This document shows positions 1 through 11,864 of a stretch of 13,618 bases of DNA, piece after piece. This DNA comes from a virus. Lineage: Duplodnaviria > Heunggongvirae > Uroviricota > Caudoviricetes. The DNA lies in the IMG/VR virus record IMGVR_UViG_3300046462_000479, one strand, 5' to 3'. The position numbers were made by a program, and so were the translations under genes. The notes beneath the pieces are model-generated. The model did not search any database. It worked only from the letters and a program-made list of their open reading frames with translations, and was not told the DNA's origin. Position 1 is the stretch's first letter, and every line of letters starts with the position of its first letter.

Positions 1-449
1 ATGCCTTGGAAGTTAAGTTTGCGTCCGTTGATCCAGGTGCGTGAGAAGAAGCTGAAGCCGGGCCAGAGGTAGTGGACGCCGGTGGCCGGATGGGTTTGGC
101 CGATGCCGTAGAAGCCGACGGCGTCGAGTTTGTCGATCAGGGTGGTGGTGCGGACAGGGAAGACGTCGTGGTCGAGGAAGCCGATGTAGTCGTAGCCTTG
201 TTCGGCGGCGTAGCGGGCGGCGAAGTCGAGCGCGTCTGGGTGCTCGTGTTTGGCTGATGCGGCCCGCTGGTAGCCGACGCCGATGCCGTGACATGATTTC
301 TCCATGTCGGGGGCGTCTTCGTCGAAGCTGTTGTCGATCAGGCAGATACCGAATGGGTCTTTCAGGTATTTGTCTAGAAGACGTTTCTGTTGTCCGACCA
401 GGTCGGGTCGTCCAAACCCGATCGTGAACAACTCGATTTTCTTCTTCAC
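1..449 (-). CDS. GT-A fold glycosyltransferase, 3'-truncated by the window edge (absent from the ORF track)
   Basis: Manual translation from GTG 449 (GTGA overlap with the 446 stop): MKKKIELFTIGFGRPDL...ICLIDNS...YDYIGFLDHDVFP...HYLWPGFSFF, open to base 1. It has a DxD motif (DHD) after a hydrophobic strand. Confidence 0.75.
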   Translation of the reverse strand, partial: MKKKIELFTIGFGRPDLVGQQKRLLDKYLKDPFGICLIDNSFDEDAPDMEKSCHGIGVGYQRAASAKHEHPDALDFAARYAAEQGYDYIGFLDHDVFPVRTTTLIDKLDAVGFYGIGQTHPATGVHYLWPGFSFFSRTWINGRKLNFQG

Positions 450-1108
450 CTGTTTCCTCGCTGGTTTGTGGTTTTGTCCAGGGCGACGATCTTCCTGGCA
501 TATTCTTTAGGCCAGACTGTTCGGTAGTAGTCATCGTGGTCTGGATGGCAATAAGCTGGCGGAAGCACGATGTTGGGAGGATTGGTAGCAAGGACGCTGT
601 TCAGGGCAGATTCGTCATGCCAGACCGGCGTGATCCCTTGTTCTACGTCTTTGTCGATGCGGAGGGCGATCTGGCTGGAGAGGACGTGCATGTCGTCGTG
701 CGGTCCTCCGACGAAGCCGCCGCAGCAGTAGACGACGCGCAGCTGTTCCGGGACGAAGCAGTGGCTGTCCGGCCGTGTTTCGAAGGGGAGCATGGGGCCG
801 ATCGTGTTGACGTAGCCGGGATGTTGGGTGGCGGTGATGCCGGTGCCGAGGATTTCTGTTCTGACTGGGCCTTCGAAGCGCATGTCGGCGTCGATCAGGA
901 ACACGTAGTCGGTGTCGGGGAACCGGTTGAGCAGGTGGTGGTGGCGGTACATGGTGCCGTCCGGCCAGCCTTCGTCTCCTTCGACGGTGAAGAAGTGGGG
1001 GTTGCGGTCGGCGAGGAAGTGGCTGGTGGCGCTGCTGAACATTTCGCGGGCGAAGTCGGTGTACAGGCCGGGGCTGGCGACGGCTACGAGGCTGACAGAT
1101 TCGGCCAT
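446..1108 (-). CDS. Family 6 (GT6, ABO/alpha-1,3-Gal(NAc)T-like) glycosyltransferase
   Basis: GT6 hallmark motifs in the correct order: VAVASPGLY, YVFLIDADMRF (DxD), QHPGY, PFETRPDSHCFVP, YCCGGFVGG, WHDESALN, C-terminal KIVALDK. Confidence 0.88.
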   Translation of the reverse strand: MAESVSLVAVASPGLYTDFAREMFSSATSHFLADRNPHFFTVEGDEGWPDGTMYRHHHLLNRFPDTDYVFLIDADMRFEGPVRTEILGTGITATQHPGYVNTIGPMLPFETRPDSHCFVPEQLRVVYCCGGFVGGPHDDMHVLSSQIALRIDKDVEQGITPVWHDESALNSVLATNPPNIVLPPAYCHPDHDDYYRTVWPKEYARKIVALDKTTNQRGNR

Positions 1109-1668
1109 AGCCTGGTCATTCCGGCTTGTGATTCGAGGAAGTGGACGGTGTAGCTGTCGGGGGTGCGGGCCATGAAGTCGGCGATGGCTTGTCCGGGCCC
1201 GTTGCGGGTGTCGTGGCAGAGCATGACGGCGGTGGGTGTGATCCGGTGGATGAGTACGAGTTCCCGGAACACGTTTTCTTTCAGGTGGTCGCCGTCGAGG
1301 AAGAAGAGCGGGCTGCGCATACCGGATTGGGCGTAGGCGAGCAGGGCGGTGGTGACGCCGTCTCCTCGTAGCTGTTTGACGGGCATCCGTTTCAGGAACA
1401 GTCCGGTTCCTTGTCCGGCGTGGTCGCGGTCTAACAGTTCCAGTTCGGGGGGCAGGTCGACGGTGACGATGGTCGGTTTAGTTCCTGCTGCTTTGCTGGC
1501 TTCGTGGAAGATGCGGGCTGAGCTGCCTCGGTTGGTGCCCCAGTCGCCGATGAAGTCTGGTTTGAGCCGTTCTACTGTTTCGGCCATGAACGTGACTTCG
1601 TCGCGGCCGTAGCCGGGAAGGCTCATGCCTTCGATTTTCTCGTTGACCTGGTCGACGATGCTGCTCAT
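1084..1668 (-). CDS. Class I SAM-dependent methyltransferase (Methyltransf_24/CmcI-like)
   Basis: Motif I variant IGDWGTNRGSS, then VTVD, LFFLDGDH and LCHD. ATGA overlap with the upstream gene. Confidence 0.8.
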   Translation of the reverse strand: MSSIVDQVNEKIEGMSLPGYGRDEVTFMAETVERLKPDFIGDWGTNRGSSARIFHEASKAAGTKPTIVTVDLPPELELLDRDHAGQGTGLFLKRMPVKQLRGDGVTTALLAYAQSGMRSPLFFLDGDHLKENVFRELVLIHRITPTAVMLCHDTRNGPGQAIADFMARTPDSYTVHFLESQAGMTRLWPNLSAS

Positions 1669-2552
1669 TCGAACGCTCTTCCGATCGCTTGGATCGAGTC
1701 CCGGTAGGTGTAGTTGCTGACGAAGCGTTGTTGTTCGCGGACGAGTTCGAGGTAGTCGTTCCGTTTCAGGCTGAGCGCCCAGTCGAGCTGTTCTTCGAGG
1801 CTGCCGACGGGGAAGCTGAGGCGGTGGGCGAGCAGGAACACGTTGGTGATGCCGAGCTGTCCGTAGCTGACGTTTTTGAAGGCGCGGCAGGGCAGGTAGC
1901 TGTGTTCTGTCTGCCAGCGTCCGGCGAAGGCTGGCGCGATCCTGCCTGCCCGGACCAGCTGCACGTTTTCTGTGTCGCTGATGTGGGTGTACAGGCGTAG
2001 GGAGAGGTGGCGGAGCAGGAGCAGCCGTTCCAGTTCGGAGATCATGGTTTTGTTGCCGAGTTCTGTTCCTGGTTTGGAGGTCAGGTCCGACCAGACGGCG
2101 CCGATGAAGGGGACGGTGGTCGCGGACGGGTTGTAGACGGGTTCGTAGAACTCTTCGGGGAGCAGGTCTGTGCCCCAGGGCTGGAAGAGGATGCGGCTGT
2201 CCGGGTCGTATTGGCGGAAGGTGTGGAGCGGCAGCCCGTAGGCGTCGCTGGTCCAGACTTGGAGGCGGAGTAGCCGGTCGGGTTCGACGGTCCGGCAGAG
2301 CGGGTCGGCACCGTCGAAGTTGTGGATGACGTAGTTGACGCCGGGGATGGCGTTGCCGATCTGTTTGCCGCAGACGTCGGCGGCGATGACGGTGGTGTCG
2401 GGCATGAGTTGGCTACGCGATTCTGGTGTGTCTGGCAGCCATAGGCTGACGATCCCCATTTTTAGGGCGGTCTGGTGGTAGTGGCGCCAGATGTGGCGGA
2501 GGCTGTCGAGGCTGTCGGTGCCGCCCCAGAGGACGAGCCGGTTTACCGCCAT
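1665..2552 (-). CDS. Putative GT-B-type glycosyltransferase (CgeB/Glyco_trans_1_2-like C-terminus)
   Basis: 295 aa. VPFIGAVW, and YLPCRAFKNVSYGQLGITN resembling the RxFE...G...ITN segment. Coupled within the GT operon. Confidence 0.55.
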   Translation of the reverse strand: MAVNRLVLWGGTDSLDSLRHIWRHYHQTALKMGIVSLWLPDTPESRSQLMPDTTVIAADVCGKQIGNAIPGVNYVIHNFDGADPLCRTVEPDRLLRLQVWTSDAYGLPLHTFRQYDPDSRILFQPWGTDLLPEEFYEPVYNPSATTVPFIGAVWSDLTSKPGTELGNKTMISELERLLLLRHLSLRLYTHISDTENVQLVRAGRIAPAFAGRWQTEHSYLPCRAFKNVSYGQLGITNVFLLAHRLSFPVGSLEEQLDWALSLKRNDYLELVREQQRFVSNYTYRDSIQAIGRAFE

Positions 2553-2791
2553 GACTCTTGGAGGAGTTCGGCGCTGGTGCCTAGCGTGGCAACAAGCTGG
2601 CTGGCGGCCCGAACAACGTTTTTGCAGGAGGACCAGAGGGCTTCCAGGTCTTCTCCGTCTGAGTCGGGTAGCTCGATGCCGTTGTCGGCTAGCGCTTTGC
2701 GGTAGAGCAGCAGCTGCATGGTTAGTCTGCCGAGTTCTTCTCGGTGGCGCATCTCGATGGCGATCAATGTGGCGTGTTCGCGGCTAGTCAT
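2543..2791 (-). CDS. Hypothetical helical protein (82 aa)
   Basis: ORF fills the gap with overlaps at both ends and has a helical/coiled-coil-like sequence. Confidence 0.7.
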   Translation of the reverse strand: MTSREHATLIAIEMRHREELGRLTMQLLLYRKALADNGIELPDSDGEDLEALWSSCKNVVRAASQLVATLGTSAELLQESWR

Positions 2792-2948
2792 TGCCGAGAC
2801 CGTATCCGTTGATGAATTCGTCGACGGCCCGCCGCGCGTCTCTGCCTGCCTGGTGTTCCTGTCCTTCTTCGATGATGACTTCGGTCGAGATTCTGAGTTT
2901 GTCTGCCGGGGTGGTTGCTACTTCTAGTTCTATTCGGATTGTTCTCAT
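2784..2948 (-). CDS. Small hypothetical protein (54 aa, MRTIRIELEVATT...GLGND; not in the ORF track)
   Basis: ATG 2948 overlaps TGA 2947-2945 (ATGA). Its TAG 2786-2784 overlaps the next start at 2791, so it fills the operon gap exactly. Confidence 0.7.
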   Translation of the reverse strand: MRTIRIELEVATTPADKLRISTEVIIEEGQEHQAGRDARRAVDEFINGYGLGND

Positions 2949-3748
2949 TCGAAGGTCAGCTCCATTTCTGCGTGTGCTGCAGTTACCCGATCGCTTTTAA
3001 TGCTGTCGAGGTTGAGGCGTCGTCCTTCGCAGTAGGCGTTGTTGAGGTCTCGTTCTGGCGCTTCATGGGTTTCTGCGTACCGGTTCGGGTGTGTTTCGTT
3101 GACGCGGTTGACCGGAACTCCTACTAGGTGCGATTCTCGATAGCAGGACGCGTAGGGGCTGAGCATGGTCTGTGTTTCGGATTGCAGTATTTCTTCGAGC
3201 TGGTTGGGGTTGTTGAAGTTGCGGCTGCCGTCGAGCATGTCCAGTAGGTCGTCTCTGTGGAACAGGTGGCCGTCGAGTGAGCCCATATAGCCGAAGTCGG
3301 CGTCGGCTTGCCGCCAGTCCCAGACAAGCAGGTCGTCGACGGCTTCGAAGGTGGGCAGGCCCTGAATGCGGCGCAGCGGGTAGCACTGGCCTGTGTTCAG
3401 TCCGAGCCGGAGGCTGAAGCAGAGGATCTCTTCCATTTTCAGGGCGACGTCCGGCCGGGTGAGTCCGTTAAGGGGACGGTAGAAGACGCTGTCGTCGGTG
3501 AGGAAGCAGGCGTGGTCGCAGGCGAGGTCGAGCAGGTCGAGGACCTGCGTCTGGAAGTTTGATTCTCTGAAGAAGTCGACGGGGTGGTCTTGCATCGTCT
3601 GCCAGTAGGCTCGTTCGTATTCGTCGTCGGTGGCGGTCCAGATGACGGTGATCTGGTCGAACAGGTTGTCGGTGTGACATGTCACACTGCGTAGGAGCAG
3701 GTCGAGCTGGCAGGCACGGTTTTTGCTGAAGACGATGGCGCTATTCAT
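2945..3748 (-). CDS. Putative GT-A-like glycosyltransferase (267 aa)
   Basis: Start reassigned to ATG 3748 (ATGA overlap). Motifs IVFSKNRACQLDLLLRS, CFLTDDSVF (acidic metal-binding motif), FGYMGSLDGHLF. Confidence 0.62.
   Translation of the reverse strand: MNSAIVFSKNRACQLDLLLRSVTCHTDNLFDQITVIWTATDDEYERAYWQTMQDHPVDFFRESNFQTQVLDLLDLACDHACFLTDDSVFYRPLNGLTRPDVALKMEEILCFSLRLGLNTGQCYPLRRIQGLPTFEAVDDLLVWDWRQADADFGYMGSLDGHLFHRDDLLDMLDGSRNFNNPNQLEEILQSETQTMLSPYASCYRESHLVGVPVNRVNETHPNRYAETHEAPERDLNNAYCEGRRLNLDSIKSDRVTAAHAEMELTFE
3672..3687. repeat. Palindrome copy 1 GTGTGACATGTCACAC
   Basis: Perfect 16-bp palindrome inside the 5' part of the 2945-3748 gene. Confidence 0.95.
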
Positions 3749-3966
3749 GTGTGGGTGGTGCCGTTGATGAGCGCGTGCTTTTTGCAGTGTTTGTGGACGG
3801 TTCCGGGGATGGGGACGGTGGCTGGCCGGATGCAGCCTTTTTCGACGCAGTGGAGGTGTCGGAGGGCGAAGAAGTAGGTGAGCGGCACCCAGATGATGCT
3901 GGCGACGAGGTTGGTGAGAACGGCTCCTGTGTCCCATCCGAACCAGTCGTTGACGATCCGGGTCAT
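3745..3966 (-). CDS. Small membrane protein (73 aa) with a Cys/His-rich C-terminus
   Basis: ATG 3966 (ATGA overlap). Hydrophobic segment GAVLTNLVASIIWVPLTYFFAL, then HCVEKGC...HKHC. Confidence 0.7.
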   Translation of the reverse strand: MTRIVNDWFGWDTGAVLTNLVASIIWVPLTYFFALRHLHCVEKGCIRPATVPIPGTVHKHCKKHALINGTTHT

Positions 3967-4175
3967 AGGGGGATCATGTCCATGTTGGTGATGTCTTCCG
4001 GCCAGAGTCGTCTGATGATCCCGTTGATTTTGACTTCGTAGACGACTCGCGGTTTTTCCCATTCTCCTCTGCGGTCGATGACCCGTTCGACTTCGCTGGG
4101 GGCTGCGACGATTGTTTCTCCGTCTGCTGTTTTGATCTGCCAGCGGAACTCGCGTTGTCTGCTGAGGCCTTTCAT
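3963..4175 (-). CDS. Hypothetical protein (70 aa)
   Basis: 4-bp overlaps at both ends, within the operon. Confidence 0.7.
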   Translation of the reverse strand: MKGLSRQREFRWQIKTADGETIVAAPSEVERVIDRRGEWEKPRVVYEVKINGIIRRLWPEDITNMDMIPL

Positions 4176-4807
4176 TGGTCGTCTCCCGGTCTGATGAGGG
4201 CGATGACGGTTCTATCGAAGACGGGTTCGCCGAGTTCTGCTTGTAGGGCTTGGGTGTAGTCCCAGTCGCCTTCGTATCGTTGGCCGAAGCGTGCGTTGCA
4301 GGGTCGGGCGAGGATCATGGGTGTGCCTATGTCGCCGTGGCGGAGTATGGGTTCTCGCCAGCAGGTGATGCTGCGGGCGGGGTGGTTGTCGCCGAAGTGC
4401 ATCCGGTAGATGGCCCAGGGGGCTGTTTGGCGTCTGAGTTGTCCGAGGGTGCCGGGGACGGCTATGTCGTCGTCGTCGATCGTCCAGATGTAGTCGGCGT
4501 CTGGTTGTTGGTCGAGGACGTGGTTGCGACTGTTGTGGCCCCAGCAGCCTCCGTCGTTGAAGGGGATATAGGTCCAGGTGGCGAGGCTGTAGCGTTTGTG
4601 TTCTTGGCTGAGGTAGGCGACGTCGATGCTTTCTGTTCCTGTTACCAGGTCTGTGTGGACGATGTAGACGTGGTCGTCTTCTTGTAGGTCTGGTGCGAAC
4701 GAGGAGAGGGTGCGGACGAGGGTTTGGCGGCCGATGGTGGGAACGATGATGGCGAGCTTGGTCGGAGAGGGTGTTGCTTCGCCGTCGAGCGTGTTTACTA
4801 CCGTCAC
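4172..4807 (-). CDS. GT2-like glycosyltransferase
   Basis: LAIIVPTIGR, GHNSRN, YIWTIDDDD (DxD), GDWDY. RBS AAAGGAG upstream of GTG 4807. Confidence 0.8.
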   Translation of the reverse strand: MTVVNTLDGEATPSPTKLAIIVPTIGRQTLVRTLSSFAPDLQEDDHVYIVHTDLVTGTESIDVAYLSQEHKRYSLATWTYIPFNDGGCWGHNSRNHVLDQQPDADYIWTIDDDDIAVPGTLGQLRRQTAPWAIYRMHFGDNHPARSITCWREPILRHGDIGTPMILARPCNARFGQRYEGDWDYTQALQAELGEPVFDRTVIALIRPGDDQ

Positions 4808-5010
4808 TTGTTTCTCCTTTCGTGGGGACGGCTCTGGCGCATACTGTCGGTGACGAGGTTGATGGGGTTGAAGGAGGGGAACAGGCAGTTGGTGCAGATG
4901 TGGGGTATGTGGTCCATTAGTCGTCTGGGGGTGTGTTTGCCGCAGTCGATGCAGTCGGCTGTCCCGTAGTCTGGTTGCGGCTGAGGGTTTGGTCCTTTGC
5001 TGCCTACCAT
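4804..5010 (-). CDS. Small Zn-ribbon protein (68 aa)
   Basis: ATG 5010 overlapping the upstream stop. CIDC and CTNC pairs. Confidence 0.65.
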   Translation of the reverse strand: MVGSKGPNPQPQPDYGTADCIDCGKHTPRRLMDHIPHICTNCLFPSFNPINLVTDSMRQSRPHERRNK

Positions 5011-5531
5011 TCCGGGACTGTCGTGAGCGGCTCGGTGGGGCGGCCTTCCATCAGCTGTTTTTTCGGGTTTAGGTGTTGTACTGCTGGGAGGTGCACGTGT
5101 GGCTGCTCCTTGTAGTGGCGGGCGAGAATGTGGCGCATGAGTACGACGTCGACTTGGTTCCAGCTGACGTTTGAGTCTTGGACTCCTTTCATTGCTGCCG
5201 GGTATTTGGCTAGGAATTCTGCTTTGAACCAGGTGCAGCCGAGGGCGGGGCCGACGTCGGTCAGCCACGGGTACGGGTAGCAGCCGTAGGGGCAGCCGCA
5301 GGTCCGGAACGCTTCGATGACGTCATGGCGGACGACGATGTCTGGTTCGACGACCATGAACGTTTCTCCGGTCTGCCAGTGGTTGGCAAGGACGCGTGCG
5401 TAGGCGTGCGGGTCGTCCGCACTGATTTCGGTCAGTTCGAGGTTAACTTCTTGTCCGAGGACGTGCAGTTCGAGGGCCGAGAGCGTTTCGTCGTACAGGC
5501 TGCCTGGCGTGTAGATGGTGACGACCCTCAC
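5004..5531 (-). CDS. Putative short GT-A-like glycosyltransferase (175 aa)
   Basis: FMVVEPDIVV (ExD variant of DxD), ALGCTWF (GxGC-like), WNQVD and a late His, consistent with a GT2-like fold. Confidence 0.55.
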   Translation of the reverse strand: MRVVTIYTPGSLYDETLSALELHVLGQEVNLELTEISADDPHAYARVLANHWQTGETFMVVEPDIVVRHDVIEAFRTCGCPYGCYPYPWLTDVGPALGCTWFKAEFLAKYPAAMKGVQDSNVSWNQVDVVLMRHILARHYKEQPHVHLPAVQHLNPKKQLMEGRPTEPLTTVPEW

Positions 5532-5548
5532 TGGTCGACCCTACGCTT

Positions 5549-7021
5549 CTATCCTGCTTCTGTCCAGCGGCTCCGGCCTGATCCGGGGCTGGCGATGACG
5601 GGGACGGGGAGGCTGGTTTGGTCTGGTAGCGGGTCGGTGGGGGTGAGCGGGCTGGTTCCGGGTTTGAGGCTGGCTTGGTAGCGGTTCCAGGCGTCGTTGT
5701 CTCCGGTTGCTTCGCTGGTCCATTTGCTGCCGCCGGTTTGGGGGATGCCGGTGGGCTGCATGTGTTTTTTGAGTTTCCAGGGCATCCGTTTGACGGCGAG
5801 GGCGACGGCCATGGCGATGTCGTCGTGGGCGCCTTCGGGGACGGCGTAGCGGACTCCGCGGGGGGTGTAGTCGTATTCGAAGCTTTCGAGTTCGTCTCGG
5901 AGGCTGCCGCGGCCGTCGGAGAGTTTGAGGTCGGGGAAGTGGATGCGTTCGTCTTGGATGGCGAGGGCGAGGCCTTCGAGGAGGTCTTGGCGGCTGCGTT
6001 CGCTGAAGGTGTAGCCGAGGACGCGCATGTCTCCGCGTCGTTGTAGGTCTTCGACGATGGCGTCGCCGGTGCCTGTGCTGTCGACGAGGGCTTGGGTTCT
6101 GCCGATGCGGCGGACGATTTCGGTCATGGTTTCGCGGTGGGGTTTGCGGAACCGGTCGAGGTGGGTCATGTCGCCTTGCCGGTCGAGGAGGCAGATGGCG
6201 GTGTAGTCGCGGGCTTCGGCGTCTCGGACGGTGGTGAGGTTGACGGCTCCGCGTCCTGCGAGGTCGACTCCGGCGGCGATCGGCTGCGCTTTCGAGTAGG
6301 CGGGAACGATGCAGTTTTCGATGGCTTTGAGTCCGAACGGGTTTGAGGTGTCGTCGAGGGCTTCGGCCATGTATAGCTGGCGGAAGACGTCGTCTTGGCC
6401 GAGCCGGTGGAAGTCGCGTTGGGCGGCTTTGATTTCGGTGTCGTCGAGGACTCCGGCTTGGACGGCGTCCCAGGCGGTGATGCGGTGGTAGGCCATGTCG
6501 GGTTCGCCGGATTCGGCGAGGCGGCTGAGCCGGTAGAACCAGTTTTTGCGGCCGCGGACGTTGCCGATGATGCGGACGGGTCCTTTGGTGAAGGTGAGGG
6601 TGCTGCGGATGGCGTGCCAGGATTCTTCTCTCATGCGGCTGGCTTCGTCCATGACGCAGGCGTAGACGTCTTCGCCGTAGAGGTCGTCTGGACGGTCGCC
6701 TGATTTGAACATGAGCCGGGTTTGGTTGGGGAGGGTGATGAGGAAGGTGGATTGGTTGCGTTTGCACATTCCTTTGATGGGGTTGAGCATGATCCAGCCG
6801 CGCCGGAAGGCGATTTCGGCTTGGCTGAAGACGGGGGCGACCCACCAGTAGTTTTGTCCGGGGTTGCCGCGGAGGGACTGTTCGATGATCCAGGCGAGGC
6901 AGCCTGATGTTTTTCCGGCTTTGGTTGAGGATTCGATGCAGCTGATGCGTGCGGGGTCGTAGATTGCGGCTTTTTGTTTGGGGTAGAGGGATGCTGGTTC
7001 GAACTGGATGGTTTTGGCCAT
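5549..7021 (-). CDS. terL: Phage terminase large subunit
   Basis: Walker A-like ESSTKAGKT, Walker B CVMDEASR, coupling motif IIGNV. RNase H-like nuclease motifs GVDLA...DYTA, VDSTGTG, HDDIAMAVALA. An in-frame TAA upstream fixes the ATG at 7021. Confidence 0.93.
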   Translation of the reverse strand: MAKTIQFEPASLYPKQKAAIYDPARISCIESSTKAGKTSGCLAWIIEQSLRGNPGQNYWWVAPVFSQAEIAFRRGWIMLNPIKGMCKRNQSTFLITLPNQTRLMFKSGDRPDDLYGEDVYACVMDEASRMREESWHAIRSTLTFTKGPVRIIGNVRGRKNWFYRLSRLAESGEPDMAYHRITAWDAVQAGVLDDTEIKAAQRDFHRLGQDDVFRQLYMAEALDDTSNPFGLKAIENCIVPAYSKAQPIAAGVDLAGRGAVNLTTVRDAEARDYTAICLLDRQGDMTHLDRFRKPHRETMTEIVRRIGRTQALVDSTGTGDAIVEDLQRRGDMRVLGYTFSERSRQDLLEGLALAIQDERIHFPDLKLSDGRGSLRDELESFEYDYTPRGVRYAVPEGAHDDIAMAVALAVKRMPWKLKKHMQPTGIPQTGGSKWTSEATGDNDAWNRYQASLKPGTSPLTPTDPLPDQTSLPVPVIASPGSGRSRWTEAG

Positions 7022-7036
7022 GCGGGGAGTATCGCA
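7022..7036 (-). promoter_or_regulatory. Possible extended -10 for leaderless terL transcription
   Basis: TG-C-GATACT 6 nt before the ATG and no SD upstream of terL. The first position of the -10 is non-consensus. Confidence 0.3.
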
Positions 7037-7040
7037 GATC

Positions 7041-7070
7041 TTGACACACCCCCCTGTACTGTAGTATACT
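7041..7070 (+). promoter_or_regulatory. Sigma70/SigA-type promoter for the rightward gene string
   Basis: TTGACA (7041-7046), 18-nt spacer, TATACT (7065-7070). Confidence 0.75.
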
Positions 7071-7077
7071 TATGTGT

Positions 7078-7160
7078 GGAGGAGTGCTGCGTGTGGGCGC
7101 GCGCTCCTCCCTCTCCAGGGGGGGCGGTCCGCTTGACCCGGCGGGCCGCCCCTTCTCCCC
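7078..7160 (+). other. Structured 5' leader with two hairpins
   Basis: GGAGGAG 7078-7084 / CTCCTCC 7104-7110, and GGGGCGGTCCGC 7121-7132 / GCGGGCCGCCCC 7141-7152 (12 bp, one G-U). Confidence 0.6.
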
Positions 7161-7164
7161 TAGC

Positions 7165-7176
7165 GTGACATGTCAC
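7165..7176. repeat. Palindrome copy 2 GTGACATGTCAC
   Basis: Intergenic, between the leader hairpins and gene 7209. Confidence 0.95.
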
Positions 7177-7208
7177 ACTGGCGGTTCGATCCTATGAGGG
7201 AGAGTGGT

Positions 7209-7433
7209 ATGCCGTACAAACACTATGAGGACAAGTTGGCTGCGCAGCGGCGCTGGTATGCGGCACATCGGGAGCAGGTGATCGCGAGCGTTGCTGCCCG
7301 GAAGCGGTCGTTGTATGCGGGTACGTGTCGGAGCTGTGGCGGGCCGACGGTCGGCAATTCGAAGCTTCAGGTTCCGGAGTGGTGCGGGAAACCTGAGTGT
7401 AGGAGGGCGCAGTGGATAGCAAAGAACAGATGA
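7209..7433 (+). CDS. Small basic Zn-ribbon protein (74 aa)
   Basis: ATG 7209 after GAGGGAGAG. CRSCG and WCGKPEC motifs. Confidence 0.72.
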   Translation: MPYKHYEDKLAAQRRWYAAHREQVIASVAARKRSLYAGTCRSCGGPTVGNSKLQVPEWCGKPECRRAQWIAKNR

Positions 7434-7714
7434 CGGTGATCGTGATGCGGGTGGAGGACCTGGAGGTTCCGTATGTCCCGTCGACGGTGTTGGTGTGTGA
7501 CCGGTGCGGGACGCCGGTGTGGTTGGACGTAAAGAACGTGCCGGTGGTGCGGCGGGAGGCGGCGAAGGTTGTCTGTCAGCGGTGTGCGCTGCCGGAGCTG
7601 CTGGTGTGCGGGATGGATGGGGCGATGGTGGGCGGAGACCGGGTCGACCTGCCGGACGACATGGCGGGCGAGATCATGGCAAACATGGTCGAGGACGAGT
7701 TGGGGCGGTCGTGA
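7430..7714 (+). CDS. Zn-ribbon protein (94 aa)
   Basis: ATGA overlap at 7430. CDRCG and CQRC motifs. Confidence 0.72.
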   Translation: MTVIVMRVEDLEVPYVPSTVLVCDRCGTPVWLDVKNVPVVRREAAKVVCQRCALPELLVCGMDGAMVGGDRVDLPDDMAGEIMANMVEDELGRS

Positions 7715-7890
7715 GGCGCCCGTTCGGGAAGCTGATGGATCTGTTGGAGGCCGATTTGCGTCAGCCGGACAGGCCGGACTGGAAGCTTGGCGAGCTGGCC
7801 TCGAAGTACGGTGAGCCGGTGGAGCGGATCATGGATGCGTTGGACGCGATCCGGGAACGCAACGGCGAAAAGACGTATATCTCGGTGTGA
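7711..7890 (+). CDS. Small protein, possible HTH (59 aa)
   Basis: GTGA overlap. WKLGELASKYGEPVERIMDAL is HTH-like. The stop TGA lies inside a palindrome copy. Confidence 0.65.
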   Translation: MRRPFGKLMDLLEADLRQPDRPDWKLGELASKYGEPVERIMDALDAIRERNGEKTYISV

Positions 7891-7900
7891 CATGTCACAC
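7885..7900. repeat. Palindrome copy 3 GTGTGACATGTCACAC
   Basis: Contains the stop codon of gene 7711-7890. Confidence 0.95.
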
Positions 7901-7919
7901 TCGATTGGGGAGGTTTGTG

Positions 7920-8204
7920 GTGGAGGATGAGGCGAAGATTGTGGAGCGGGAGGGTGGGGTCGAGGTGTTCGATCAGGGGGACGCGCACGCCCGCCATCTG
8001 ATTGAACGCGAGGGCAATGTGGCGGTGGTGGTGGCGGCGGTGACGAAGGACGGCGATTCGCAGTGTTTGGCGATGTTGGCGTCGCCGGTGAATGCGGAGC
8101 AGCGCAACTTTCTGTTGGCGTTTCTGGCGGAGGTGGGAAGGACGCTGGTCAATCGGGCTGAGTTGTTGGACGGGATGGAGTTCGATGGTGACGGCGAAGC
8201 GTAG
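7920..8204 (+). CDS. Hypothetical protein (~94 aa)
   Basis: GGGAGG RBS at 7908-7913 with GTG 7920. Alternative in-frame start at GTG 7887. Confidence 0.65.
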   Translation: MEDEAKIVEREGGVEVFDQGDAHARHLIEREGNVAVVVAAVTKDGDSQCLAMLASPVNAEQRNFLLAFLAEVGRTLVNRAELLDGMEFDGDGEA

Positions 8205-8922
8205 GTGGAGGGCGGCGGAGGCGGCCCGCCTGTATGGGCTGTTGGGGTCGCAGCGTCTGGTGGCGGAACGGATGGGCGTGTCCCGGAACGTGGCGTCGGA
8301 TCTGTTGTCGGATCCGGATCGGGCGAAAGCGTTGGCGCGCCGGGCGGGGTATGCGGGCGTGTGTGTGGATTGTGGCGGACCGACGGACGGCAGCCTGGGT
8401 GCGGGGAAGACTTCGAGGCGGTGTCTGGCGTGTAGTAGGGCGAGGGCTCGTGCGGGCCGGAAGTGGACGGAGGAGACGATCGTGGACGCGATTCGCCGGT
8501 GGGCTGACACGCATGACGGCCGTCCGCCTGGGGCGATGATGTGGAAGAAGGCGGACCGGGAGAACAACTATCCGTCGTTTTCGCAGGTGTATGCGCCTGG
8601 CGGCCCGTTTCCTAAATGGTCGGATGCGATTGTGGCGGCCGGGTTCGAGAGTCGTACGGGCGTCTATGAGCGGTCGGGTGTGCGCGGGTTGAAGCAGAGG
8701 ACGTTGCGGGGTTTGTTGTTTGTGCAGGAGCGTCGGGGTGGGCGGGTGACGCCGGACATGTTGGCGTGGAGGTTGGGGTTGGAGCCGTCGGCCGGGTTTC
8801 AGATGTTGGGGATTTTGTGTCGGCGCGGGCTGGTGGAGCGGGTGGCTCGTGGCGATTACCGGCTGACGGAGGCTGGAGAGCAGTGTGACTTGTCACACTT
8901 AAAGGAGGGGAAGAATGGCTGA
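8185..8922 (+). CDS. Multi-module DNA-binding protein: HTH + Zn ribbon + homing-endonuclease-associated repeat + winged HTH
   Basis: Start ATG 8185 after GGAG. SQRLVAERMGVSRNVASDLL (HTH); CVDC..CLAC; KWTEETIVDAIRRW...RPP...YPS...FPKWSDAIVAAGF (HNH_repeat-like); VTPDMLAWRLGL...LCRRGLVERVARGDYRLTEAG (wHTH). Confidence 0.75.
   Translation: MVTAKRRWRAAEAARLYGLLGSQRLVAERMGVSRNVASDLLSDPDRAKALARRAGYAGVCVDCGGPTDGSLGAGKTSRRCLACSRARARAGRKWTEETIVDAIRRWADTHDGRPPGAMMWKKADRENNYPSFSQVYAPGGPFPKWSDAIVAAGFESRTGVYERSGVRGLKQRTLRGLLFVQERRGGRVTPDMLAWRLGLEPSAGFQMLGILCRRGLVERVARGDYRLTEAGEQCDLSHLKEGKNG
8882..8899. repeat. Palindrome copy 4 AGTGTGACTTGTCACACT
   Basis: Immediately 5' of the RBS of gene 8915. Confidence 0.95.
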
Positions 8923-9187
8923 CGGTAATAGGTTCGAAGCGTTTTCGGAGTCGGAGCGGGTGTTGTTGATGATGGGTTTGACGTTAGACATCATGGATAT
9001 GATGTACGGGATCGTGTCTGATGAGCCTGCCTCTCCGGTTGTGGCGCGTGAGAAGATGCCGATCATGATCCGGATGGTGAACGAGATGGCGGACACTTTT
9101 GGCACAGACGCGGTTAACCGTGATCTGGTGGCGCAGCTGATGGCGGTGTTGGATCAGCGGGCGGCGGAGGCTCGTGATGCCGGTTGA
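8915..9187 (+). CDS. Hypothetical helical protein (90 aa)
   Basis: Strong RBS AAGGAGGGG and an overlapping start. Confidence 0.75.
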   Translation: MADGNRFEAFSESERVLLMMGLTLDIMDMMYGIVSDEPASPVVAREKMPIMIRMVNEMADTFGTDAVNRDLVAQLMAVLDQRAAEARDAG

Positions 9188-9377
9188 TGCGCGCATACCT
9201 GTTGCTGGTCGGGCTGCCGGTCAGGTCGCGACGGTTGGAGGCCTGGTACCGGAACATGTTTCTGCGGCCGCGTTTCACTGGTGGTGTGTCTTCTGTGGCC
9301 ATGACTGGGTGGGCGACGAAACGATGTTTGCGTGTCCTGAGTGTGCTGAGGAGACGTGGGTAGGCCACGATGCTTGA
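9187..9377 (+). pseudogene. Small Zn-ribbon gene apparently split by a -1 frameshift near 9273-9276
   Basis: Frame A from ATG 9187 (TGATG overlap) looks coding up to ...FLRPRF. The -1 frame then reads HWWCVFCGHDW...CPEC and ends at 9377, overlapping the next start. Confidence 0.45.
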
Positions 9378-9555
9378 TCCGCCCGACGATCTGGAAGAGA
9401 TGGTGGCAGAGATGTGGCGGAAAGGTCTGTCTCCGGAGGATGGGGGCGACATGCTGCTCAGCTTGTATTCGGCGGAAGATCTGGCTGTGCGGCTGGTCGC
9501 GATGGACCCGGACGGCTGGGTGACCGAAGAAGACGAGAAACGGTTTGGAGGGTGA
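9370..9555 (+). CDS. Small acidic hypothetical protein (61 aa)
   Basis: Overlapping start and coding-like codon usage. The stop TGA lies inside a palindrome copy. Confidence 0.7.
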   Translation: MLDPPDDLEEMVAEMWRKGLSPEDGGDMLLSLYSAEDLAVRLVAMDPDGWVTEEDEKRFGG

Positions 9556-9563
9556 CATGTCAC
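9552..9563. repeat. Palindrome copy 5 GTGACATGTCAC
   Basis: Contains both the stop of gene 9370 and the start of gene 9557. Confidence 0.95.
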
Positions 9564-9721
9564 AGTGGGCCGAGTTCGAACTGCTGCATCCCGGCTGGGC
9601 GCTGGCCGTCCGTCTGGTGGACCGGCTGCTCGTCTACGCGGTCGCGCTGGTCCTGGTCGTCTGCTTCCCCGTGACGATGCTGGTCTTGTATTTGGTGCAG
9701 TGGTGGAGAGGAAAGATTTGA
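9557..9721 (+). CDS. Small single-pass membrane protein (54 aa; not in the ORF track)
   Basis: GGAGG RBS 5 nt before ATG 9557, which lies inside the palindrome. LLVYAVALVLVVCFPVTMLVLYLV is a TM segment. TGATG overlap with the 9721 start. Confidence 0.72.
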   Translation: MSQWAEFELLHPGWALAVRLVDRLLVYAVALVLVVCFPVTMLVLYLVQWWRGKI

Positions 9722-9933
9722 TGGCCGAACAAAACGATCGGGACGACTTGAAGACCGCTTCCGTATGGGGTCGCTACGGCCCGCTCGCCTGCGACGAGTG
9801 CGAGCGGCACTTCCTCGACAACATGCCCGCGCTACTCCACGCCTCCGCATCGGTCGGCATCGAGCACGCCCTCACCACCGACATGGCGCTCGACGCCTAC
9901 TTCGAGGCTTACCACCGAGAGAATCATGCCTAA
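9721..9933 (+). CDS. Hypothetical protein (70 aa, CDECERH motif)
   Basis: Start reassigned to ATG 9721 (TGATG coupling, GAGGAAAG upstream). Confidence 0.7.
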   Translation: MAEQNDRDDLKTASVWGRYGPLACDECERHFLDNMPALLHASASVGIEHALTTDMALDAYFEAYHRENHA

Positions 9934-10483
9934 GCGCGAATCGCAGACCGCGAACGTATGCGGGAGGGTGGCCGATCTCATCGAGGGACTTGGCGAGATT
10001 TACACGCGCGAGGGCGTCCACATCTGGCTCACCGGACGCCACCGGCTGCTTGGCGACCGCACGCCACTCGATGTGATGCGCGACGAGGGCGGCCTCGACC
10101 GCGTAGAAGCCCTGCTCGCGTATGGGGGCGACCACTACGCGGCAGACCCGCTCGGGACACACATCTCATCGACCGCGAAAGATCGTGCGAAGTGGTCTGA
10201 CCTGTTGGACGAGGACGATCTCGCCATCATCGCGGAAGATGCGAACCCGAAGACCGCTTCCCTATACGAGCGCGAGACGAAGGCACAGGTCGCCTTCTGG
10301 CGCGAGCAGTTCTTCGGTGCCGACAGTCGCGTGGCAGAACTGAAGGAGGCGATCCGGGACGCAATCGAGAACATCGAGAGCGACGTTTACCTGAACGCCG
10401 TCGATGCGTTAGATACCGGCCCGATGATTGCGGCCATCGTGGAGACGAAGCAGCGGCTCAAGGCGGCGGTGGGCGATGTCTGA
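9926..10483 (+). CDS. Protein with an N-terminal Xre/MbcA/ParS antitoxin C-terminal-like domain fused to an acidic helical region
   Basis: IYTREGVHIWLTGRHRLLGDRTPLDVMRDEGGLDRVEALL fits the W-L-x4-x2-L-G-x2-P-L pattern of the antitoxin toxin-binding domain (DUF2384-like). Confidence 0.65.
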   Translation: MPKRESQTANVCGRVADLIEGLGEIYTREGVHIWLTGRHRLLGDRTPLDVMRDEGGLDRVEALLAYGGDHYAADPLGTHISSTAKDRAKWSDLLDEDDLAIIAEDANPKTASLYERETKAQVAFWREQFFGADSRVAELKEAIRDAIENIESDVYLNAVDALDTGPMIAAIVETKQRLKAAVGDV

Positions 10484-10706
10484 CGAGAACCTCAAGACCG
10501 CAAAAAGCTGTGTCGCGTGGCTGCTCGGTCGGAAGGTCGATCCGCGCGAGACGACCATCGTCAAATTCATGCCGACGAGTCCGCCGCTGCGCGGAACCAT
10601 CGTCCTCGTAGACGGAGTCCGCTGCCGGGTGAGCTACGCGCGCGTGACGTGGGATGGGCCGCGCTGGACGATCCGATCGCTGCGCGTCAAAGGAGCTGCT
10701 TTATGA
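10476..10706 (+). CDS. Hypothetical beta-rich protein (76 aa)
   Basis: ATG 10476 overlapping the upstream stop. ATGA overlap downstream. Confidence 0.68.
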   Translation: MSDENLKTAKSCVAWLLGRKVDPRETTIVKFMPTSPPLRGTIVLVDGVRCRVSYARVTWDGPRWTIRSLRVKGAAL

Positions 10707-10981
10707 CCGCTTCTGATACGCCGCCCATGAGTCCGTGCATCGGCTTCGGAGAGTTCGAGGGGACATGCGAGAACGAGGCCGGAGATTCACCGTGGTCGAA
10801 GCTGTGGTGTCTGCGCTGCGACCGTCTACGCCTCGACCACATCACGGCCCAGATGGAAAAGATCAGCGCCCGATTCGCTGTCGAGGCTCCTCCCCACCCA
10901 GAGGAACGGACACCAACATCCGAACCGGCAGGCCACGTTCCCTCCAAACCTGCCCCCAACCAGATTAACCGCTCCGCATAG
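10703..10981 (+). CDS. Cys-containing hypothetical protein (92 aa) with a Pro-rich tail
   Basis: AAGGAG RBS and ATG 10703. C-x9-C...CLRC spacing. Confidence 0.65.
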   Translation: MTASDTPPMSPCIGFGEFEGTCENEAGDSPWSKLWCLRCDRLRLDHITAQMEKISARFAVEAPPHPEERTPTSEPAGHVPSKPAPNQINRSA

Positions 10982-11149
10982 AACGGCGGGGCGTGGACGC
11001 TAACGGGCAAGCCGAACCGGAGGAACAAACGCACACATCCGCGTTCCTGCCTCCGTCCAGGACAGAACCGGCCAACCCCTAAGAAGGCGGGAACAGCCGA
11101 AGCTCGTCCACAAGGCGCACCGTGCGCCCCACCGCCAGCGAAGACACCA

Positions 11150-11169
11150 AGGCCCCCGAAAGGGGGCCT
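11150..11169. terminator. Hairpin between convergent transcription units
   Basis: AGGCCCCC-GAAA-GGGGGCCT, a perfect 8-bp stem. A weak T-rich tail follows on the minus strand. Confidence 0.6.
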
Positions 11170-11188
11170 ACGTGTACCCGCAAACAGT

Positions 11189-11200
11189 GTGACAAGTCAC
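11189..11200. repeat. Palindrome copy 6 GTGACAAGTCAC
   Basis: One base beyond the stop of the RHH gene. Confidence 0.95.
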
Positions 11201-11201
11201 G

Positions 11202-11477: not shown

Positions 11478-11518
11478 ACACCAAACGATACCACAAGACA
11501 CCACACCACAAGATACCA
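11478..11518 (-). promoter_or_regulatory. Extended -10 promoter overlapped by three 13-bp direct repeats
   Basis: TG-G-TATCGT (11493-11485) 7 nt before the GTG. Plus-strand repeats CCAAACGATACCA 11481, CCACAAGACACCA 11491, CCACAAGATACCA 11506. Confidence 0.5.
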
Positions 11519-11706
11519 TTAAGTACCAACTGGGCCCACAACACAAAAACTAGCGGACAGCCCGCGCGCCCCGGCGGGTGTTGTCGGTTTCGTAAACTGT
11601 GGGTTTGTTGCCAGTCTAGGCTACGCCGGCCGCCCCCGTTGCCTTGTTGGCATACGTGTTGCCCGCACGGACAATGCTCCAGGCGCACGTTGCCCTAGCT
11701 GGCGAC

Positions 11707-11847: not shown

Positions 11848-11864
11848 GGGTGGGTGGGCATAGA

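Follow-up and report, generated by a model that had tools for sequence, protein, structure and literature searches.

A cassette between terL and portal of an uncultured soil phage that probably builds a fucose-containing, methylated sugar chain

The window, a stretch of 13,618 nucleotides of viral DNA, derives from an uncultured soil phage of ~73–77 kb and contains the opening two thirds of a late-operon cassette of ~8.9 kb that is located between terL and a Mu-type portal gene. This cassette probably builds a fucose-containing, methylated sugar chain. We infer sugar identities, step order, and acceptor from the genes, and we lean slightly toward the phage's own virion proteins as the substrate that is glycosylated. 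This interpretation builds on direct observations of gene order, protein families, folds, lineage conservation, gene fusions, and a lack of export and DNA-modification partners, together with sugar specificities that are assigned by family resemblance.

The terL gene is the first of a leftward late operon and is followed in the ORF list of the window by a run of 12 tightly coupled ORFs, all on the minus strand:

5549..7021, minus strand: terL, large terminase subunit, 490 aa (phrog_2, 4.1e-32, and four other terL PHROGs; Terminase_3 weak)
5004..5531, minus strand: 175-aa protein of a large virus-only family (conserved ExD [E62, D64], two Cys, three His)
4804..5010, minus strand: 68-aa ORF with CxxC...CxxC (Cys4, zinc-ribbon-like), from the ORF list and translation
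4172..4807, minus strand: 211-aa GT2-type (GT-A) glycosyltransferase (family profile; PF00535 weak, 0.042)
3963..4175, minus strand: 70-aa lineage-conserved protein (tblastn, 37–45% identity in L011–L020)
3745..3966, minus strand: 73-aa protein with one transmembrane-like helix (hydropathy maximum 1.72, residues 16–34) and a Cys/His-rich tail
2945..3748, minus strand: 267-aa GT-A glycosyltransferase, GT74-like (AF2 pLDDT 94.9 and Foldseek)
2784..2948, minus strand: 54-aa ORF (called on the identical contig L008)
2543..2791, minus strand: 82-aa ORF (ORF list; called on L008)
1665..2552, minus strand: 295-aa compact GT-B glycosyltransferase, CgeB/YkvP-like (AF2 pLDDT 96.4 and Foldseek)
1084..1668, minus strand: 194-aa SAM-dependent O-methyltransferase, Methyltransf_24/CmcI/TylF group (PF13578, 3.4e-6, above cut-off; PF04989, 2.3e-4)
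446..1108, minus strand: 220-aa family-6 glycosyltransferase, retaining alpha-1,3-Gal/GalNAc/Glc type (PF03414, 2.6e-21)
1..449, minus strand: 235-aa GT-A-like protein, N-terminal 149 residues in the window (the gene leaves the window edge and is complete in L008, 10660–11367)

The ORFs named in the earlier note lie at the coordinates it gave, and its terL is confirmed. Its description of overlaps throughout the run holds for every junction downstream of the 175-aa gene (4–25 nt) if the 68-aa ORF, which overlaps its neighbors by 7 and 4 nt, is counted; terL and the 175-aa gene are separated by a 17-nt gap. Omitting the 68-aa ORF, which is missing from public gene calls, leaves a 196-nt gap in the run, and the coding status of this ORF is uncertain because it has no homologue in related loci. 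It is one of five small non-enzyme ORFs (68, 70, 73, 54, and 82 aa) interspersed among the enzyme genes of the window. The 54-aa and 82-aa ORFs likewise have no homologues in related loci, the 70-aa protein has no Pfam or PHROG family match, and a 64% identical homologue of the 73-aa protein is encoded elsewhere in the relative G001, indicating that this gene is not tied to the cassette. TerL is ~28% identical to the TerL proteins of Thermus, Halorubrum, and Tunturiibacter phages and has a C-terminal tail of ~70 aa rich in Pro, Thr, and Ser.

As the earlier note had anticipated, the run continues past the window edge. A 31-kb contig (L008) that is 100% identical to window positions 1–11108 carries the cassette 3.3 kb further, through a 320-aa GT2, a 258-aa GT2, a 334-aa methyltransferase, and a 109-aa ORF, up to the portal gene. 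The whole cassette therefore encodes seven supported glycosyltransferases, namely three GT2 enzymes (211, 320, and 258 aa), the GT74-like GT-A (267 aa), the CgeB-like GT-B (295 aa), the GT6 (220 aa), and the GT-A-like protein (235 aa), along with the glycosyltransferase-associated 175-aa protein, two SAM methyltransferases (194 and 334 aa), and six small ORFs (68, 70, 73, 54, 82, and 109 aa). We found no promoter- or terminator-like sites on the minus strand inside the cassette. Hydropathy analysis detects no membrane segments in the cassette enzymes, the 73-aa ORF being the sole cassette product with one, and the cassette genes on the window and L008 include no flippase, polymerase, polyprenol transferase, or export machinery.

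Five of the six glycosyltransferase-like calls of the earlier note are supported. The GT6 scores 76 bits against PF03414 (cut-off 25), also matches NF041524 (4.1e-31) and phrog_3317 (6.7e-22), contains DAD (residue 73) and HDES (residue 164) motifs, and is 24–31% identical to cyanophage GT6 genes. The model of the 295-aa protein matches GtfC/Gtf3, SenB, PimA, and MshA in the PDB with Foldseek E values down to 7e-6; its best BFVD match is a Hokovirus multi-glycosyltransferase protein (E 6.7e-12, TM 0.76), followed by CgeB-like giant-virus proteins, and several of its homologues carry PF13524. The model of the 267-aa protein aligns with residues 470–769 of Dictyostelium PgtA among Swiss-Prot models (E 2e-21, TM 0.88, rmsd 3.1, 21% identity), whereas the runner-up matches in this set reach only 4e-7; its PDB matches are POMGnT1, SpsA, GnT-I, and TarP, and D85–D86 are invariant in its family, for which 727 homologues were found. 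Based on this structural match, we consider the 267-aa protein a candidate GDP-fucose:beta-Gal alpha-1,2-fucosyltransferase. For both the 295-aa and the 267-aa protein, the nearest structural relatives are cytoplasmic, protein-acting enzymes. The GT2 assignment of the 211-aa protein stands at the profile level (TarP, 1.5e-6; RmlT, 2e-5; chondroitin synthase, 9e-5), with an N-terminal IIVPTIGR motif and an invariant DDDD at positions 111–114. In the family of the 235-aa protein, D39 and the DxD motif D93xD95 are invariant, and PF00535 is detected in two of 78 homologues; 58% of the nearest Atlas cluster carries PF00535.

The sixth call, a GT-A fold for the 175-aa protein, was not substantiated: no Pfam, PHROG, or PDB match was found and hhalign probabilities are ~1% or less. 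This protein matches 680 representative clusters, and Atlas offers Anp1, GT2, and GT7C at 0.93–0.95 as leads only. Relatives of the protein carry a fused GT2 domain (P0361) or adjoin GT2 or sugar-epimerase genes, and its gene lies within ~0.9 kb behind terL in every locus showing both. This context ties the protein to glycosylation; it may be a minimal GT-A enzyme. The methyltransferase call was borne out, and a sugar-type enzyme is part of the operon: the 194-aa protein contains the motifs DWGTNRG (42) and DGDH (125), matches the rhamnosyl O-methyltransferase model NF045824 at 2e-3, has no detectable similarity to any cultured phage, and is by sequence a candidate sugar O-methyltransferase.

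The cassette is kept across a soil phage lineage with genomes of ~60–77 kb. It occupies the slot in which portal normally follows terL, as the earlier note had proposed: a sister lineage (L054) lacks the cassette and has adjacent terS, terL, and portal genes. The slot being filled here and empty there argues for a late, virion-related context. In the complete relative G001 the cassette is still directly upstream of portal although terL has been relocated, and in another backbone (L018) it lies behind a different terL type. The GT74-like and GT6 genes occur together in every locus covering the region and are fused as a single 495-aa ORF in a Solirubrobacteraceae MAG; L018 encodes the GT-B as a fusion with a methyltransferase, and L061 encodes it as a fusion with the GT74-like domain. 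Two relatives carry a GDP-mannose 4,6-dehydratase gene within the cassette (1.4e-129 and 6e-103); one of them, G001, also encodes a GDP-fucose-synthase-like epimerase. The co-occurrence of the GT74-like and GT6 genes, the fusions, and the dehydratase together support the coherence of the pathway. Structural modules contain additional glycosyltransferase genes: in this phage one for a 237-aa GT2-like protein, and in G001 one for a GT4 beside collagen-repeat proteins.

Virion proteins are reportedly O-glycosylated in mycobacteriophages (Corndog gp35–38, Che8, and Myrna; Freeman et al. 2023), a process that is said to use a Ser/Thr-rich capsid tail. In Corndog, an O-methyltransferase and three glycosyltransferases are encoded between portal and protease and are expressed but are not virion components (Cresawn et al. 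2015, PMC4351075). The two systems share the placement of soluble phage glycosyltransferases and an O-methyltransferase among head-morphogenesis genes, and gp35 and the window methyltransferase are both 194 aa and both match Methyltransf_24. However, no pairwise sequence similarity was found between Corndog and window genes, including the glycosyltransferases against gp36–38; the Corndog slot is portal–protease with four enzymes, whereas here it is terL–portal with about ten; and the mycobacteriophages are not reported to have GT6, GT74-like, or CgeB-like enzymes. Glycosylation there is proven and here is predicted from genes, and the capsid here has no C-terminal Ser/Thr tail: in nine lineage members, the capsid protein lacks a Ser/Thr-rich extension and terminates with a conserved ...DLGxYFxNAVSA. 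L022 has lost the sole capsid patch enriched in Ser/Thr (STWTGSTTG) but still carries the cassette. Both capsid observations count against a virion target. Thus, of the earlier proposal of a phage-built oligosaccharide serving as a virion glycan shield, the multi-enzyme glycan-assembly operon stands, but the virion target is weakened by the capsid sequences and by the lack of homology to the proven mycobacteriophage enzymes. Soluble enzymes without an exporter, glycosyltransferases in structural modules, and cytoplasmic, protein-acting structural relatives provide indirect support for a virion or other protein target.

Other systems resemble the cassette in part. PgtA is a cytoplasmic, protein-glycosylating enzyme with a GT2 beta-3-GalT half followed by a GT74 alpha-2-FucT half (PMC6939170), the GT74 half being by far the strongest match of the 267-aa protein. 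As in the Dictyostelium/Toxoplasma Skp1 pathway, the phage enzymes are soluble and predicted to act stepwise in the cytoplasm, and the steps around fucose would involve a GT2 followed by an alpha-galactosyl-type transferase; unlike that pathway, the follow-on enzyme is a GT6 rather than a GT77, the cassette has no prolyl hydroxylase or GT60 initiator, and identity to PgtA is only 21%. The GT6 resembles those of cyanophage P-SSM2, Bacteroides ovatus (BoGT6a), and E. coli O86 (WbnI) in being short and soluble, with HDES and a Pfam GT6 match above cut-off, but its gene neighbors an alpha-2-FucT-like gene within a late structural operon. The phage GT6 keeps a DxD (DAD), in contrast to the metal-independent BoGT6a with its NxN. 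Chlorovirus PBCV-1 encodes its own capsid glycosylation, including A064R with two glycosyltransferase domains and a methyltransferase; both viruses would employ cytoplasmic machinery with several glycosyltransferases, a sugar O-methyltransferase, and 6-deoxy sugars, and GT-B–methyltransferase fusions occur in phage relatives and giant-virus matches. However, PBCV-1 infects eukaryotes and its glycans are N-linked, and it is likened to the cassette by general make-up and not by sequence homology.

An unlikely alternative, though one with several points in its favor, is that the cassette modifies a host glycoconjugate, such as a wall-teichoic-acid-like polymer, a lipoglycan, or an S-layer or surface-glycoprotein glycan, on the cytoplasmic face, followed by export by the host. 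Receptors would then be masked, protecting progeny from loss to debris or preventing superinfection. The best solved relatives of the 211-aa GT2 in the PDB are wall-teichoic-acid glycosyltransferases, TarP (a prophage-encoded GlcNAc transferase) and RmlT, with TarP also among the fold matches of the 267-aa protein, and soluble glycosyltransferases could use host-made lipid-linked intermediates. Furthermore, a five-gene core is shared at 42–55% identity with ordinary Actinomycetota chromosomal clusters, in one case with the GT74-like and GT6 genes fused, where it presumably decorates a bacterial structure, and so is not intrinsically a virion-modifying module. Against this, neither this cassette nor those of two complete relatives include an initiating polyprenol-phosphate transferase, flippase, ABC exporter, or ligase; the genes occupy a head-morphogenesis slot of the late operon rather than an early or lysogeny module; and further glycosyltransferases are embedded among tail and fibre genes. 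Known seroconversion modules comprise one to three genes, which also counts against this alternative given the ten enzymes here: gtrABC and S. aureus TarP likewise involve a phage-borne GT2, and no solved structure matches the 211-aa profile better than TarP, but these modules confer lysogenic conversion and have membrane partners or act on a defined cell-wall substrate, whereas the cassette has no membrane partner.

It is improbable that the product is instead a soluble cytoplasmic glycan, either a polymethylated oligo- or polysaccharide, free or lipid-primed and comparable to actinobacterial methylmannose/methylglucose polysaccharides, or a glycosylated small molecule; it would serve phage metabolism or assembly and not coat the particle. 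The mycobacterial MMP pathway likewise combines soluble GT-B enzymes with SAM methyltransferases and has no exporter, its mannosyltransferase (7qsg) appears among the GT-B fold matches, and the closest cellular homologues are in Actinomycetota. However, seven different glycosyltransferase types, including GT6 and GT74-like enzymes, suggest a branched hetero-oligosaccharide rather than a homopolymer, no MMP/MGLP-type hydrolase or acyltransferase was found among the window and L008 genes, and a metabolic role does not explain why the cassette always lies next to portal and head genes.

The GT-B enzymes with which T-even phages glucosylate hmC-DNA are a precedent for DNA hypermodification, but DNA-modifying enzymes are normally expressed with replication genes and not between terL and portal. 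That the cassette decorates modified phage bases, thereby evading restriction, is very improbable: it adjoins a packaging gene, and large sugar-bearing thymidine adducts are known, as reported for YerA41 (PMC9023294), but the bacterial homologues sit in ordinary glycan clusters, and the absence of a base-activating enzyme from the window, pointed out earlier, extends to a 20-kb identical contig and to up to five related records including two complete genomes, in which we found no thymidylate synthase/hydroxymethylase (PF00303, four records), Tet/JBP (PF12851), or TGT/DpdA (PF01702), with control genomes scoring as expected.

Returning to glycosylation of the phage's own virion proteins, we posit that late in infection cytoplasmic enzymes would assemble an O-methylated hetero-oligosaccharide stepwise from nucleotide sugars of the host, which in relatives could also be phage-made. 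In one segment, a GT2 would lay down beta-Gal, the GT74-like enzyme would place Fuc-alpha-1,2 onto it, and the GT6 would attach an alpha-1,3-hexose, yielding a histo-blood-group-like branch, with the TylF/CmcI-type methyltransferase capping sugar hydroxyls. The acceptor is probably cytoplasmic given that the enzymes lack membrane segments and no flippase, polymerase, or polyprenol transferase accompanies them, and would most likely be the capsid, a decoration protein, or the fibres, modified before or during assembly as in Corndog and Che8.

The operon of multiple glycosyltransferase (GT) genes that the earlier note described behind terL is confirmed and extended. The window has a GC content of ~60% and a marked strand skew, and its minus strand carries all convincing open reading frames (ORFs) between positions 1 and 7021. 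Searching for exact copies of the GT6 protein led to a 31-kb Logan contig, a 20.7-kb stretch of which (L008) matches window 1-11108 at 100% identity and continues the run beyond the window edge, as had been proposed, through two GT2 genes, a methyltransferase gene, and a 109-aa ORF to the portal gene. The portal, capsid, and further GT genes that the note had suggested seeking in the flanks are all present downstream on L008.

Genes of the leftward operon, from terL through the window edge into L008
5549-7021, minus strand: terL (five terminase PHROGs, best 4e-32), first gene of the leftward operon
5004-5531, minus strand: 175-aa protein
4804-5010, minus strand: 68-aa Cys4 ORF
4172-4807, minus strand: 211-aa protein
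2945-3748, minus strand: 267-aa protein
1665-2552, minus strand: 295-aa protein
1084-1668, minus strand: 194-aa methyltransferase
446-1108, minus strand: GT6 protein
1-449, minus strand: N-terminal part of the protein at the window edge, 235 aa when complete in L008
L008, past the window edge: 320-aa GT2 (PF00535, 1.2e-5)
L008, past the window edge: 258-aa GT2 (3.3e-22)
L008, past the window edge: 334-aa class-I methyltransferase (1.5e-10)
L008, between the 334-aa methyltransferase and the portal: 109-aa ORF
L008, after the 109-aa ORF: Mu-type portal (2.2e-26)
L008, 15878-18082: 734-aa histidine-phosphatase/S78-protease fusion (Peptidase_S78_2, 6e-25; His_Phos_1, 7e-28) with a Cys-rich N-terminal region
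L008, after the protease fusion: scaffold-like protein, 144-aa head protein, and lambda-E-like capsid protein

Twelve ORFs lie downstream of terL. The coupling claimed for this run holds at the later junctions, each of which overlaps by 4-25 nt when the 68-aa ORF, which is omitted from public gene calls, is counted; it does not hold at the first, where terL and the 175-aa gene are separated by a 17-nt gap. No promoter- or terminator-like sites were found on the minus strand within the cassette, by which we mean the run of GT and methyltransferase genes between terL and the portal gene. Based on the gene order past the edge, the cassette spans ~8.9 kb, of which about the first two thirds fall inside the window. 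One further GT2-like gene is present among the tail genes on a 73-kb contig of this phage. The C-terminus of the terL product (5549-5760) is a ~70-aa Pro/Thr/Ser-rich tail that is apparently disordered and lies outside the terminase profile coverage, and no small terminase gene is recognizable upstream of terL (7021-7170). The protease-phosphatase fusion varies among related phages, with two loci (L011 and L014) encoding the protease without the phosphatase and two others (L012 and L013) retaining the phosphatase.

The region to the right of terL is divergent: a sigma-70-like, near-consensus promoter (TTGACA-18-TATACT, 7041-7070) faces away from terL on the plus strand and is followed by small early-type genes. 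Two proteins of this early region have recognizable domains.

8185-8922, plus strand: 245-aa MarR-like winged-helix protein (1.5e-5)
9926-10483, plus strand: protein whose C-terminal domain is of the Xre/MbcA/ParS antitoxin type (3e-8)

Nine copies of a 12-nt palindrome, GTGACWWGTCAC, are present in the window vs. 0 expected (200 shuffles), at positions 3674, 7165, 7887, 8885, 9552, 11189, 11712, 13169, and 13228, and at 7424 and 15856 of L008. Most copies are located at early-region gene starts, and one lies ~60 nt inside the 267-aa GT gene. The palindrome looks like a putative binding site of a dimeric regulator.

The family calls made previously for the genes at 446 (GT6), 1084 (SAM-dependent methyltransferase), 1665 (GT-B), 2945 (GT-A-like), and 4172 (GT2) are upheld. 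The GT6 protein matches PF03414 with 76.2 bits vs. a cut-off of 25 (E 2.6e-21) and contains both a DAD motif (residues 73-75), presumably the DxD metal/donor motif of GT6 enzymes, and an HDES motif (residues 164-167), a stretch that we take to bear the catalytic glutamate. Its sequence places it unambiguously in the GT6 family; its match to NF041524 (108 bits) is under the subfamily cut-off of 250. The 194-aa protein passes the PF13578 cut-off (28.3 bits vs. 26.3), contains SAM-binding and DGDH-type motifs, and is predicted to be an O-methyltransferase of the Methyltransf_24/CmcI/TylF type; its scores against rhamnosyl O-methyltransferase models are under the cut-offs of those models. At least 192 metagenomic homologs of the 295-aa protein exist, several of which carry PF13524. 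The predicted structure of this protein is a compact GT-B fold (pLDDT 96.4) whose two Rossmann-like domains resemble those of solved GT-B enzymes. Nearly all of its 43 PDB matches at E<=1e-3 are GTs, its solved structural neighbors being GtfC/Gtf3, SenB, PimA, and MshA and its viral ones giant-virus multi-GT and CgeB-like proteins. GtfC/Gtf3 extend O-glycans on serine-rich adhesins.

The 211-aa protein is below the Pfam cut-off as a single sequence (14.2 bits vs. 23.3). Its family profile matches TarP (1.5e-6) and other GT2s, with an invariant DDDD, and at this profile level we predict it to be a GT2 with an N-terminal nucleotide-binding strand and a DxD motif. In the 235-aa protein a DxD is invariant, and leads point to GT2; a PDB profile search gave nothing better than cellulose synthase (E ~0.17). 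The family of the 175-aa protein is very large (680 clusters), confined to viruses, and marked by conserved ExD, Cys, and His residues. Pfam and PHROG scans of 76 members gave no match, and the sole match in a PDB profile search, to ABCE1 ATPases, is ExD-based and was rejected as spurious. Alignment by hhalign to three GT-A families gave probabilities of ~1% or less, the ExD strand aligning to the DxD of two of them, and Atlas yields no more than GT leads. Some relatives of the 175-aa protein carry a fused classical GT2 domain (P0361), whereas others occur as tandem duplicates or adjoin GT2 or sugar-epimerase genes in unrelated contigs. These contexts link the family to glycosylation; the fusion in P0361 shows this link and has no bearing on the fold. 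We set aside as less probable the idea that this protein is the missing small terminase, based on the conserved ExD/Cys/His pattern and the GT2 fusions.

The 267-aa protein has 727 homologs and no Pfam match, and its predicted fold is GT-A (pLDDT 94.9). A Foldseek comparison with Swiss-Prot models, in which the structures on both sides are predicted, returned a single outstanding match, residues 470-769 of PgtA, the two-domain Skp1 glycosyltransferase of Dictyostelium (E 2e-21, TM 0.88, rmsd 3.1, 21% identity); the runner-up matches (4e-7) are 14 orders of magnitude below. The matched half of PgtA corresponds to its GT74 alpha-1,2-fucosyltransferase, whose cytoplasmic substrate is Skp1 (PMC6939170), and a GT-A fold has been predicted for GT74 (PMC12595478). 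On the modeled structures, the 267-aa protein is related to the founding member of GT74 and is a predicted fucosyltransferase.

Among 50,697 phage records, megablast found no match to window 1-7100, and tblastn found none to the methyltransferase. Related phage loci from IMG/VR and JGI (L011-L023) share 56-76% (terL), 51-72% (portal), and 76-84% (capsid) identity with this phage. Their cassette core consists of the 175-, 211-, 70-, 267-, and 295-aa proteins, GT6, and the 235- and 258-aa proteins at 31-60% identity and in partly reshuffled order, whereas the 320-aa GT2 and the methyltransferases are present or absent. The catalytic motifs are invariant. Sequence divergence is faster among the cassette proteins than among those of the head. 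The terL-cassette-portal order is found in the identical contig and about ten relatives. For a cassette-free comparison we used a portal-based sister lineage (45% identity in the portal and 31% in the capsid), in which terS, terL, and portal are directly adjacent without a cassette; it replaced loci L001-L007 (terL ~50% identity), which have no cassette and were unsuitable as controls given their unrelated head modules.

In the complete genome of one relative (G001, 71.9 kb), terL and the 175- and 211-aa genes are relocated to the far (3') end of the late operon as a block (9525-12610, vs. window 4172-7021) ~37 kb downstream of the remaining cassette, which stays immediately upstream of the portal gene. 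Given that these three genes move together, the cassette is composed of two sub-modules, one terL-linked and one portal-adjoining. The G001 cassette gains a GDP-mannose 4,6-dehydratase (1.4e-129), a GDP-fucose-synthase-like epimerase, a third SDR enzyme, and an extra GT-A-like gene. A phage with a different backbone and a Terminase_6C-type terL (L018) has the same core behind terL, again with a GDP-mannose dehydratase. Neither the dehydratase nor the epimerase is encoded in this phage's own cassette. The G001 portal gene (47315-49750; 11505-13868 in its locus, L023) contains a ~330-aa in-frame insertion with a weak LAGLIDADG_3 match, probably an intein with a homing endonuclease.

The cassette also has bacterial counterparts. 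When 185,579 species genomes were searched with the 267-aa profile, 59 loci were returned, the best of which (47% identity) are in Actinomycetota MAGs (one chromosome-level assembly; Solirubrobacteraceae), followed by Gaiellaceae (39%) and cyanobacteria (~35%). Cassette families are fused in two of the bacterial loci and in one phage.

L061, 7974-9725: GT74-like+GT-B fusion, 583 aa, Actinomycetota MAG chromosome
L062, 7989-9476: GT74-like+GT6 fusion, 495 aa, Actinomycetota MAG chromosome
L018, 12278-14041: methyltransferase+GT-B fusion, 587 aa, phage

The L061 block is contiguous, in the order 267-295 (fused)-GT6-235-258, and in L062 the fusion is followed by a GT2 and then a GT-B gene. The flanks of the bacterial genes encode an ABC permease, a histidine kinase, multi-GT2 proteins of 1,157-1,398 aa, a GT2-TPR protein, and methyltransferases. 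The two loci are glycan clusters of bacterial chromosomes and not prophages. A portal profile found no prophage relative in the 185,579 species genomes, and we therefore make no direct host assignment. The phage is present in soil and rhizosphere metagenomes, and a sequencing-run search returned DNA runs only, with no RNA run. A Thermoleophilia-type actinobacterium is a reasonable guess for the host. The bacterial clusters with the five-gene core, the cassette genes also present in Actinomycetota, indicate the donor phylum, probably the host phylum, and an uncharacterized actinobacterial glycan.

The most coherent reading of the predicted chemistry has four parts. GDP-fucose would come from the host, or from phage-encoded synthesis in relatives; the GT74-like enzyme would fucosylate a beta-Gal placed by one of the GT2s; GT6 would then attach an alpha-1,3 hexose by retaining transfer; and the methyltransferases would cap hydroxyls on the sugars. 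Characterized bacterial GT6 enzymes prefer Fuc-alpha-1,2-Gal. This reading is supported, indirectly, by the constant pairing of GT6 with a GT74-like gene and by the one natural fusion of both.

Virion proteins are our best guess for the acceptor, and the interpretation of the cassette as building a glycan on the virion is plausible. This acceptor is favored because the cassette stays beside the portal and head genes through rearrangements, because more GTs are found among tail genes and, in relatives, adjoining collagen-repeat proteins, and because two of the GTs most resemble protein-glycosylating enzymes. It is also favored by the predicted cytoplasmic location of all enzymes and the absence of an exporter; no membrane segment is present in any of them, and a membrane-like helix is found in a 73-aa ORF only. 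Unlike lysogenic-conversion O-antigen/WTA modules, the cassette has no membrane flippase/transferase partner and is located in the late operon. However, known virion glycosylation places the glycan on capsid or tail-tube subunits at Ser/Thr-rich C-termini, and the lack of such a tail on the capsid speaks against a virion acceptor: no Ser/Thr-rich C-terminus was found in capsids of the lineage, the capsid of this phage being covered up to its last 24 residues. One capsid loop has a Ser/Thr patch whose occurrence does not follow that of the cassette. Use of the core module by bacteria also counts against a virion acceptor, as does the lack of homology to proven systems. As in virion glycosylation of the type studied by Freeman 2023, the phage GT genes sit with virion structural genes, and the head module of mycobacteriophage Corndog has an analogous methyltransferase-plus-GT block (gp35-38; PMC4351075), which favors the virion; yet blastp of the cassette against this block finds nothing below E 0.2, and only the methyltransferase shares a Pfam family.

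The alternative that the cassette glycosylates DNA bases, in T-even-type or other hypermodification, is less likely given that relatives have no hydroxymethylase, Tet/JBP, or TGT homologs. PF00303 (four related records) and PF12851 and PF01702 (five) are all absent from the relatives' records scanned, two complete genomes included, with positive controls for PF00303 and PF01702. The lack of a base-activating partner that the earlier note saw in the window thus extends to these records, including for DpdA-type enzymes.

Just downstream of the capsid gene, two relatives carry large collagen-triple-helix-repeat ORFs: the record of L013 (G006, ~23,700-29,100; open frames of 737 and 1,065 aa) and G001 (35,604-36,230, 208 aa; 37,863-40,253, 796 aa), in which one lies beside a GT4 glycosyltransferase. 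Their products are candidate glycosylated head or tail fibers.

Phage-encoded glycosylation cassettes in structural operons are already known; specific to this system are the GT74-like/GT6 pairing, the link to GDP-fucose synthesis genes, and the five-gene core common to actinobacterial chromosomes. The cassette, part of the core of a widespread lineage of soil phages, comprises ~ten enzymes from families unrelated to the mycobacteriophage ones; small and soluble, these enzymes could serve glyco-engineering. To our knowledge, glycosylated phage particles have been demonstrated only in a few mycobacteriophages. Mycobacteriophage virion glycans blunt antibody recognition. If virions are decorated here too, phage glycosylation would be common and chemically diverse, with a concrete chemistry of a GT74-like fucosyltransferase feeding GT6 and sugar O-methylation. 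We tentatively suggest, while judging it unlikely as a whole, that a large, uncultured soil-phage lineage, probably on Thermoleophilia-type Actinomycetota, has an enzyme set centered on a Skp1-pathway-like GT74 fucosyltransferase and its GT6 partner and builds with it an O-methylated, fucosylated, histo-blood-group-like glycan on its own virion proteins in the cytoplasm, mimicking a host glycan made by homologous chromosomal clusters. If this mimicry reading is true, the phage particle would copy a surface glycan of its host, using enzymes unrelated to the mycobacteriophage set.
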